Shown here in pieces: positions 6,001 through 9,000 of a DNA stretch of 13,210 bases. Numbering within the stretch: position 1 is the stretch's first letter; each line of letters opens with the position of its first letter. Made by a program: the position numbers. The stretch comes from a virus, in UHGV virus genome UHGV-0056195; one strand, given 5' to 3'.

Positions 6001-9000
6001 TCAGCAACCTGGTGGAGCAGGGAGCCACAACCCTTGCCGAAATCAACGATAACTACCAGTTTGCCTGCCAGCAGGTGGGAAGACTGTTGCTCTCTTATCT
6101 TCTCGATGACCTGAAAAAGCGGCGTAATCACGCAGTGGTGATTAATCGCGATGATCGCCAGCGTCGCCAGACCGTGATTCTCAATGCGGAAGGCGATGAT
6201 GGTGAGCTGACCAATGACATTTCCAGGTTAAATACACATATTGCGCTGGCTCCTGTTCAGCAGACACCGGCGTTTAAGGCACAGCTTGCACAGAGAATGT
6301 CGGAGGTTATTCAGGGGCTGCCGCCTCAGGTGCAGGCTGTTGTGCTCGATCTGTGGGTTAATCTTCTGGATGTGCCGCAGAAACAGGAGTTTGTGGAGCG
6401 TATTCGTGCGGCACTGGGGACGCCAAAATCACCGGATGAGATGACGCCGGAAGAACAGGAAGCCGCCCGGCAGCAACAGGCGCTGGAGCAGCAACAACAG
6501 GAACTACAGATGCGCGAAATGGCAGGTAGGGTGGCTAAACTGGAAGCTGAAGCTGCCAGGGCACGCGCGGCTGCGCAACGGGATAATGCAGGTGCTCAAA
6601 GGGATGTCGCAGCGGCACAGGGGCAGCGTTATGTGGATGCACTTAATCAGGCCCATACGGCTGAAATCATTACCGGCATACAGAATATGGAACAGGAGCA
6701 GGAAATTCTTCAGCAACAGATGCTGCATACGCTACAACAGCGGATGAATGAAATGCCGCTCTGAACACTCTGAACGTAACGGAACCCCGTCATTGTACGG
6801 GGTTTTTTGTTTCCGGAGATAAGCGTACCGGGAGCGGTGCGCTTATTCGCGGGGGCAGCGATAAGCCTTATTTACTCAACCATTCGGATCTGTCCGATAA
6901 ACAGACCATGCGGAGTTATTTATGGATTTTGAATTTACGGGTGAAGAAACCCCGGAACAACTGGAAAAAATGCTGGAAGGGCTTGGGGATGTGGATATTG
7001 ACGGTCACGAACAGGACGGCGTGACAGAGGTCGCCACAGAAAATCATGCGGATGAGGCAGCACAGACACAGACGGGCGATAACACTGCGGCACCGACGCC
7101 GGATGCCAGTGCTGAGCAGACGCAGGACGTGAAGGAGCCGGAAGCGAAGGGTGTGCTCACCCGCGATGGTAAACACGTCATTCCCTATGAGGTCCTTGAG
7201 GCTGAACGTTCCGGTAAGCAACGGGCTGAACAGGAAGCGGCACTTCTTCGGGGACAGATAGCGGAAGAAAAACGCCTGGTTGAACTGCTGACGTCTCAGA
7301 TCCACCAGGCCGGCATGAAGCCCACACCGTTACCGGAAAACGAAAAAATCTCTGACGAGCAGATTGCCCGTATCAGGGATATGTATCCGGAAATTGGTGA
7401 CGCGGTGGCTTCGCTCATCCGTAAAAATGACTATCTCCAGTCGCGTGTTCAGCAGTCCGCACAGCAGGCAGAAGGCGGTGGTGGTGATTTATCACCGGTA
7501 TTTGATGCCATGAATGCCGTACCGGTGCTGAAAACGTGGCAGGAGTCCGATCCGGATCGCTTCTCGGTTGCCGTATCTATCGACGGTAAGCTCCGGAATG
7601 ACCCCGCATGGAAAGACAAAACGCTCACTGAACGTTTCGCTGAAGTGGCCCGCCGTACGCAGGTTGCTTTCGGTGAAACCAGTGAGCCGTCTGCTGACAA
7701 CAAGGCTGACAACACGGATATCCGGAAAACGGCGGAAGAGAAAGTGAATACCGCTGAACGGGAGCAGGGTGTGCCTGCTTCCCCGTCAGATTTGGGCACC
7801 ACGGCCTCCGTCGGAACCGGTGATAATTTTGAACGGTTACTTGGCGCTTCTCATTCAGAGGCAGAGGCGATTATGCGCGGTATGTCGAATGCCGAAATAG
7901 ACGCGCTTCTGGAGAAGCTCGGGTAACTTACTGAAGGAGTACTGAAGTAATGACGACTGTAACAACAGCCCAGGCGAATAAGCTGTATCAGGTGGCGCTT
8001 TTCACCGCGGCCAACCGCAACCGCTCGATGGTGAACATTCTCACAGAACAGCAGGATGCACCAAAAGCGGTTTCGCCGGACAAGAAAAGCACAAAACAGA
8101 CCAGTGCGGGGGCGCCGGTTGTGCGCATCACTGACCTCAACAAACAGGCCGGTGATGAAGTGACGTTCAGCATCATGCACAAACTCTCAAAACGTCCGAC
8201 GATGGGGGATGAGCGTGTTGAAGGGCGTGGAGAAGATCTCAGCCATGCTCAGGAATCATGCGCTATTTACTGGAATCAGCCATGCTGATTTCTCCCTGAA
8301 AATTAATCAGGGTCGTCACCTGGTGGATGCGGGCGGACGTATGAGCCAGCAGCGCACGAAGTTCAGTCTGGCGTCTTCCGCAAGAACGCTTCTTGGTACG
8401 TACTTTAACGACCTGCAGGACCAGTGCGCCATTGTACATCTTGCCGGAGCCCGCGGTGATTTTGTTGCGGATGACACCATTCTGCCGACAGCGGAGCACC
8501 CTGAATTCAAAAAAATCATGATCAACGACGTTCTGCCGCCGACACATGATCGTCACTTCTTTGGCGGCGATGCGACAAGTTTTGAGCAAATTGAAGCGGC
8601 AGATATTTTCACCCTTGCACTGGTTGATAATCTCTCCCTGTTTATTGACGAGATGGCGCACCCGTTACAGCCGGTGCGTCTGTCCGGTGATGAACTTTAT
8701 GGGGAAGATCCGTACTACGTTCTGTACGTCACGCCGCGTCAGTGGAATGACTGGTACACCTCCACTTCCGGCAAGGACTGGAACCAGATGATGACGCGTG
8801 CCGTGAACCGCTCAAAAGGTTTTAACCATCCGCTGTTCAAAGGCGAATGTGCGATGTGGCGCAATATTCTGGTCCGCAAGTATGCGGGGATGCCGATCCG
8901 TTTCTATCAGGGTTCGAAGGTTCTGGTATCGGAGAATAACCTGACGGCAACCACAAAAGAGGTCACTGCTGCAACCAATATTGACCGTGCCATGTTACTG

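Follow-up and report, generated by a model that had tools for sequence, protein, structure and literature searches.

A 37-nt insertion with a Clostridium-matching core interrupts the major capsid gene of a Shiga-toxin-type phage contig

Does the major capsid locus of the virus genome UHGV-0056195 consist of two genes, of one gene read in two frames, or of one gene that has been broken? The question is raised by positions 7950-9201 of the window (the whole stretch of DNA analysed, 13,210 nucleotides (nt) in length), where two overlapping open reading frames (ORFs) occupy the place of a single capsid gene. An earlier note, made from the sequence alone, had located the split at a run of five G residues and proposed an inactivating frameshift, a homopolymer sequencing error or two real genes as its possible basis. 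The layout itself was found to be as described there. A good ribosome-binding site, AAGGAG at 7934-7939, is followed 10 nt downstream by ATG 7950, the start of the first ORF (ORF1, 7950-8288), which ends at TGA 8286-8288 and specifies a product of 112 amino acids (aa). The +1 frame, here termed the ORF2 frame, is open after TGA 8161-8163, from 8164 through to the stop at 9199-9201, and contains in-frame ATGs at 8209 and 8245; the GGGGG run (8204-8208) falls inside the two-frame overlap. As a matter of arithmetic, deletion of one base or addition of two would indeed join ORF1 and ORF2, giving a protein of about 416 aa.

Alignment with the Shiga toxin (Stx) phages Stx2_EH2011 and Stx2_EH0505, in both of which the gene is intact, demonstrated that 7950-9201 is a single major capsid gene interrupted by a 37-nt insertion. 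Relative to both phages the window carries one extra block of 37 nt at 8239-8275 (or, equivalently, 8250-8286), ordered as TCAGCCATGCT - CAGGAATCATGCGCTATTTACTGGAA - TCAGCCATGCT, which amounts to a core of 26-27 nt together with a direct target duplication of 10-11 nt; TCAGCCATGCT itself is present as a single copy in the relatives. When the whole window was compared with two relatives by BLAST, the sole break occurred at 8249/8276, with a subject overlap of 11 nt. The resultant order of features along the locus is as follows.

7950-8238, + strand: major capsid gene, 5' portion in the authentic frame, made up of codons 1-96 plus the opening bases of the target that is duplicated.
8204-8208, + strand: G5 run, without a role in the frame change and the same in the intact EH2011 and EH0505 genes.
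8231, + strand: GGA in place of GGT, a synonymous change private to the contig and located 8 nt upstream of the insertion.
8239-8249, + strand: TCAGCCATGCT, the target sequence, in the first of its two copies; an 11-nt direct repeat here, it occurs once in relatives.
8250-8275, + strand: foreign core CAGGAATCATGCGCTATTTACTGGAA of 26 nt, or 27 with T8276 included, found letter for letter in intergenic DNA of Clostridium sp. AM49-4BH.
8276-8286, + strand: the 11-nt direct repeat again, its last base forming part of the TGA (8286-8288) that ends ORF1.
8287-9201, + strand: 3' part of the major capsid gene, from codon 101 (DFSLK...), now in frame +1.

Up to 8249 the authentic frame is consequently frame 0, and from 8287 it is frame +1: because 37 = 36 + 1, the 304 downstream codons are displaced to the +1 frame, and it is this displacement that creates the picture of a 112-aa ORF plus a capsid-sized ORF. 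The insertion splits the gene after codon 100, and the original frame then reaches a TGA 37 nt further on. Deletion of the 37 nt restores an ORF of 1215 nt, free of internal stops, the 404-aa product of which is 100% identical to the capsid protein of Stx2_EH2011 and differs at three residues from WP_106894361.1. On either side of the insertion the agreement with Stx2_EH2011 is close, 7950-8238 being colinear with differences at 7964 and 8231 only, and 8287-9201 showing zero differences.

These comparisons bear directly on the homopolymer. The proposal that a length error or a mutation at G5 shifts the frame draws on the fact that the run does fall in the two-frame overlap, but the run and its flanks are the same in the intact relatives (GATGGGGGATG being identical in the Stx2_EH2011 and Stx2_EH0505 genes), the authentic protein (…MGDERVEGRGEDLSHA…) goes on in frame 0 for 41 nt beyond the run, and the entire length difference from the relatives is accounted for by the 37-nt block, the site of which lies ~35 nt downstream of G5. 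Everything up to 8238/8249, G5 included, is colinear and in frame with the intact genes, and a cause at the run, whether mutational or technical, is refuted. The earlier note was thus right in suspecting one disrupted capsid gene and mistaken as to the lesion, which is a 37-nt insertion and not a change of 1 or 2 nt at the G-run; likewise its fused product of ~417 aa, although sound as arithmetic, is replaced by a true product of 404 aa. More generally, a homopolymer in the vicinity is no evidence of cause, and it was comparison with close relatives that located the true lesion.

Taken as a whole, the window is a lysis and head-tail module, that of a short-tailed phage of the Shiga-toxin type. 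The segment 7900-9250 matches 192 GenBank phage records, the best being that of Stx2a-converting phage Stx2_EH2011 (99.8%; classified as Sepvirinae, Oslovirus ArgO145), together with prophages in about 400 complete Escherichia coli genomes. RefSeq annotates the E. coli gene as a single 404-aa coding sequence (CDS), 'N4-gp56 family major capsid protein', and the order terminase, portal, 334-aa protein, capsid is shared between the window and the RefSeq relatives; the neighbourhood is thereby that expected of the family, whereas the one continuous ORF of about 400 aa that typifies it is broken in the window by the insertion. Against Pfam PF13252 (Phage_capsid_3) the restored protein scored 294.5 bits (cut-off 23) over profile positions 2-375 of 376, and in the ORFs as found this profile is divided, with positions 2-85 in ORF1 and 79-375 in ORF2. 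A tblastn search with the restored protein returned 408 phage records that match in one continuous frame, at identities down to about 23%, and gave 97.0% identity over 404 aa with the protein of VT2-Sakai (Sp5).

For two members of this group experimental data on the protein exist. ORF62 of Sp5, the capsid protein of that phage, is required for heads to form and is bound on them by antibody (PMC5155283), and the capsid protein of phi24B, which has an HK97-like fold and is uncleaved, has been resolved in the virion from Thr2 (bioRxiv 10.64898/2026.04.10.717836). The restored protein resembles Sp5 ORF62/ECs1223 and phi24B gp69 (PF13252, DUF4043) in sequence (~97% to Sp5), in gene order and in its full-length profile match; unlike those genes, that of the window carries the 37-nt insertion and cannot yield a full-length protein. 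By its sequence, its gene order and its closeness to proteins studied by experiment, the gene is that of the capsid protein of a short-tailed Stx phage (Sepvirinae, of the 933W/Sp5/phi24B type) belonging to the N4-gp56 / PF13252 family, and is as such already well known.

On the same evidence, namely the divided Pfam domain, the relatives that read in one frame, and the data on the Sp5 and phi24B capsids, ORF1 and ORF2 represent halves of one protein. That they might be two genuine genes, a 112-aa protein followed by a capsid protein initiated at ATG 8245 or 8209, accords with the output of an automatic gene caller, which predicted both 7950-8288 and 8245-9201. However, the two halves match the same Pfam domain end to end, and the relatives, inspected for a two-ORF arrangement in the 408 phage records and in RefSeq, have a single continuous ORF encoding one 404-aa protein. 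In addition, the N-terminal arm, from Thr2 onwards, belongs to the assembled phi24B capsid, while 12 residues at the end of ORF1 and 14 at the start of the 318-aa ORF2 as called are either encoded by the insertion or out of frame. The two-gene proposal of the earlier note, with its capsid initiated at ATG 8245, is accordingly refuted. A programmed +1 or -2 ribosomal frameshift joining ORF1 to ORF2 is of still lower probability, and is likewise excluded: its one point of departure is the existence of an overlap, but both overlap and frame change are absent from all the relatives compared, and the fused product would hold at least 12 foreign residues inside a conserved HK97-type fold. In this last respect the judgement of the earlier note, that a programmed shift was unlikely, was borne out.

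A superficially similar case is provided by NC_004913.3 (Escherichia Stx1 converting phage), the capsid of which also matches in two pieces with more than one CDS annotated. The two differ in that the span concerned (4588-5798) is 1 nt short there, a simple indel, whereas the lesion in the window is a 37-nt insertion containing foreign DNA. The split in NC_004913.3 is probably an old sequencing error, and as a precedent it suggests that a split capsid gene in Stx phages is usually a defect of the record.

The foreign character of the core was apparent from its matches. With one additional base it is a 27-mer that recurs exactly in Clostridium sp. AM49-4BH, isolated from the human gut (L004:6258-6284), and in a scan of 185,579 species, each represented by one genome, this organism gave the sole match to the 26-mer, for which the calculated chance expectation was about 3e-4 (596 Gb, both strands). 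Seven further metagenome contigs contain the 26-mer, all of them with Clostridium flanks and none with phage flanks. The exact 27-mer match, the low chance expectation and the exclusively Clostridium flanks of the other contigs together show the core to be a piece of a gut-Clostridium chromosome. The Clostridium locus shows no duplication at the core.

The donor stretch (L004 6240-6300, NZ_QUFB01000022.1) is intergenic, lying in the 5' leader just upstream of a small ORF (MRSLLIKDTTKEERMAIIEE...), and contains a short hairpin, GCGCA-GGAATCA-TGCGC. An Rfam scan of the Clostridium locus gave no family match, the only one recorded being a sub-threshold chance match.

The insertion is private to this contig. 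Among the phage matches listed (of the 192 records) the subject span is 37 nt shorter than the query, as it is in the E. coli matches listed. The 26-nt core has no match in 5,426 complete E. coli genomes, is present on no IMG/VR contig and, when sought elsewhere in the window on both strands with as many as 3 mismatches and with k-mers of 8-12, recurs solely as trivial 8-9-mers; the 81-nt Clostridium context that contains it has no match in GenBank phages or PLSDB plasmids. In a collection of 15 billion proteins the ORF1 and 318-aa ORF2 products are each found on exactly one contig, and the restored product of 404 aa is matched without a single difference on 83 contigs of E. coli isolates.

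The single record with the exact ORF1 product is the source contig itself (ena:ERZ1304315 NODE_2357_length_13210_cov_2.791638), which constitutes the whole of the window and is of the SPAdes style (metaSPAdes), with a k-mer coverage of 2.79. The ENA accession gave no match in a search of the literature. The contig has other private defects. A collagen-like tail-fibre gene (11351-12742; ORF 12700-13209+) is broken in frame by a 1-nt deletion near 12693, at a junction that reads GGAAGTGC-GCAAATG in the window as against GGAAGTGCGGCGAATG in EH2011 and that has locally the look of a hybrid of two alleles; among complete E. coli genomes, none shares this junction.

How, then, did the insertion arise? 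It is probably a chimeric sequencing or assembly artefact which was never present in a replicating phage. A chimeric molecule or read, made in vitro or in silico, would on this account have become the only bridge over a thinly covered point. Such a technical origin is favoured because DNA of a strictly anaerobic Firmicute has no plausible route into a prophage gene of E. coli, and because the allele is a singleton everywhere, the coverage is very low and the contig carries other private defects.

Several features of the insertion nevertheless weigh against an artefact. The molecule would be a three-part one (phage, Clostridium, phage) that comes back to its starting locus and leaves a duplication of 10-11 nt there, a structure that resembles staggered-cut integration more than the usual two-part library chimera; a ligation of three fragments that ends in the low-abundance genome in which it began is a priori improbable, and no assembler step was identified that yields this structure. 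The microhomology at the two junctions is only 0 and 1 nt, and polymerase template switching therefore fits poorly; between the phage and Clostridium flanks no similar run of at least 10 nt was found, the two agreeing at 4-5 of 11 positions. Stx-like prophages, moreover, are often defective, and the tail-fibre frameshift could equally mark a prophage in decay.

The same observations lend some substance to a real private mutation, in which a staggered break in the capsid gene of an E. coli prophage was repaired with a captured Clostridium fragment of 26-27 bp, leaving a target duplication of 10-11 bp. A duplicated target around an insert is an anatomy typical of integration or fill-in events in vivo, the near-blunt junctions, with microhomology of 0-1 nt, are better accounted for by ligation than by polymerase switching, and a second private frameshift, that of the tail fibre, suits a decaying prophage. 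Such a mutation, on the other hand, needs Clostridium chromosomal DNA within an E. coli cell, no collection searched holds a second example of its allele, and the k-mer coverage is merely 2.8. The gene, furthermore, differs from a known intact gene, the insertion aside, at synonymous sites only, so that there would have been no time for further decay, and no mechanism is known to us by which a non-homologous fragment of 26 bp is inserted with a duplication of 11 bp. A genuine mutation is on balance possible but unlikely. In its most specific form, capture in vivo with an 11-bp duplication by an undescribed route that integrates very short DNA of an unrelated phylum at staggered breaks in gut E. 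coli, the proposal becomes highly improbable.

Two further sources of the insertion were considered and rejected. Near-precise excision of Tn10 leaves a target-site duplication flanking a short remnant, and the footprints of transposons and insertion sequences (IS) of this kind resemble the window in that a short insert is bracketed by a direct duplication spanning roughly one helical turn. The 26-nt core of the window, unlike such footprints, has no terminal inverted repeats and no copies in E. coli, and its source is a unique one in Clostridium. The other candidate, a join of two phage strains at the insertion, was assessed from sliding differences along the window against two relatives: the points at which the mosaic switches (before about 6000, and at about 8900) lie away from 8239-8286, and EH2011 is nearly identical to the window on both sides of the insertion.

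Were the insertion real, it would amount to a null allele of a gene that head formation requires, making the prophage defective, and reads that proved it genuine would make it an interesting case of very short DNA captured from another phylum. Under either origin the outcome is an ordinary one, a known gene with a singleton defect. The biological weight of a singleton lesion in the well-known capsid gene of Stx phages, seen in a metagenome contig of 2.8x coverage, is accordingly small. The locus does serve as a warning that short foreign inserts in low-coverage metagenomic contigs can mimic frameshifts, split genes and the signatures of a 'defective prophage'.

The substitution at 8231 also distinguishes the contig from its relatives. 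Stx2_EH2011, Stx2_EH0505 and the prophage of E. coli 2013C-3033 all have T where the window has A, and over 8190-8249 a single mismatch separates the window from its best match among E. coli genomes. Exact strings bearing A8231 or T8231 are both absent from IMG/VR, a result which is uninformative on the alleles. The private A8231 may stem from the same aberrant read or molecule.

With respect to overall composition, the contig is a mosaic: 6000-11000 is almost identical to Stx2_EH2011 (9 differences), while upstream of this stretch it is nearer to the 2013C-3033 prophage, from which it diverges after about 8900. Two length differences of 9 nt each relative to Stx2_EH2011, both in frame, were recorded in the Gly-X-Y repeats of the tail-fibre gene (~12529 and ~12609), and these represent ordinary variation in repeat number. 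In the 2013C-3033 prophage (L006 2006-2160) a small hypothetical gene of the lysis region is marked as frameshifted by RefSeq; judged from this gene, minor decay is common in such prophages.
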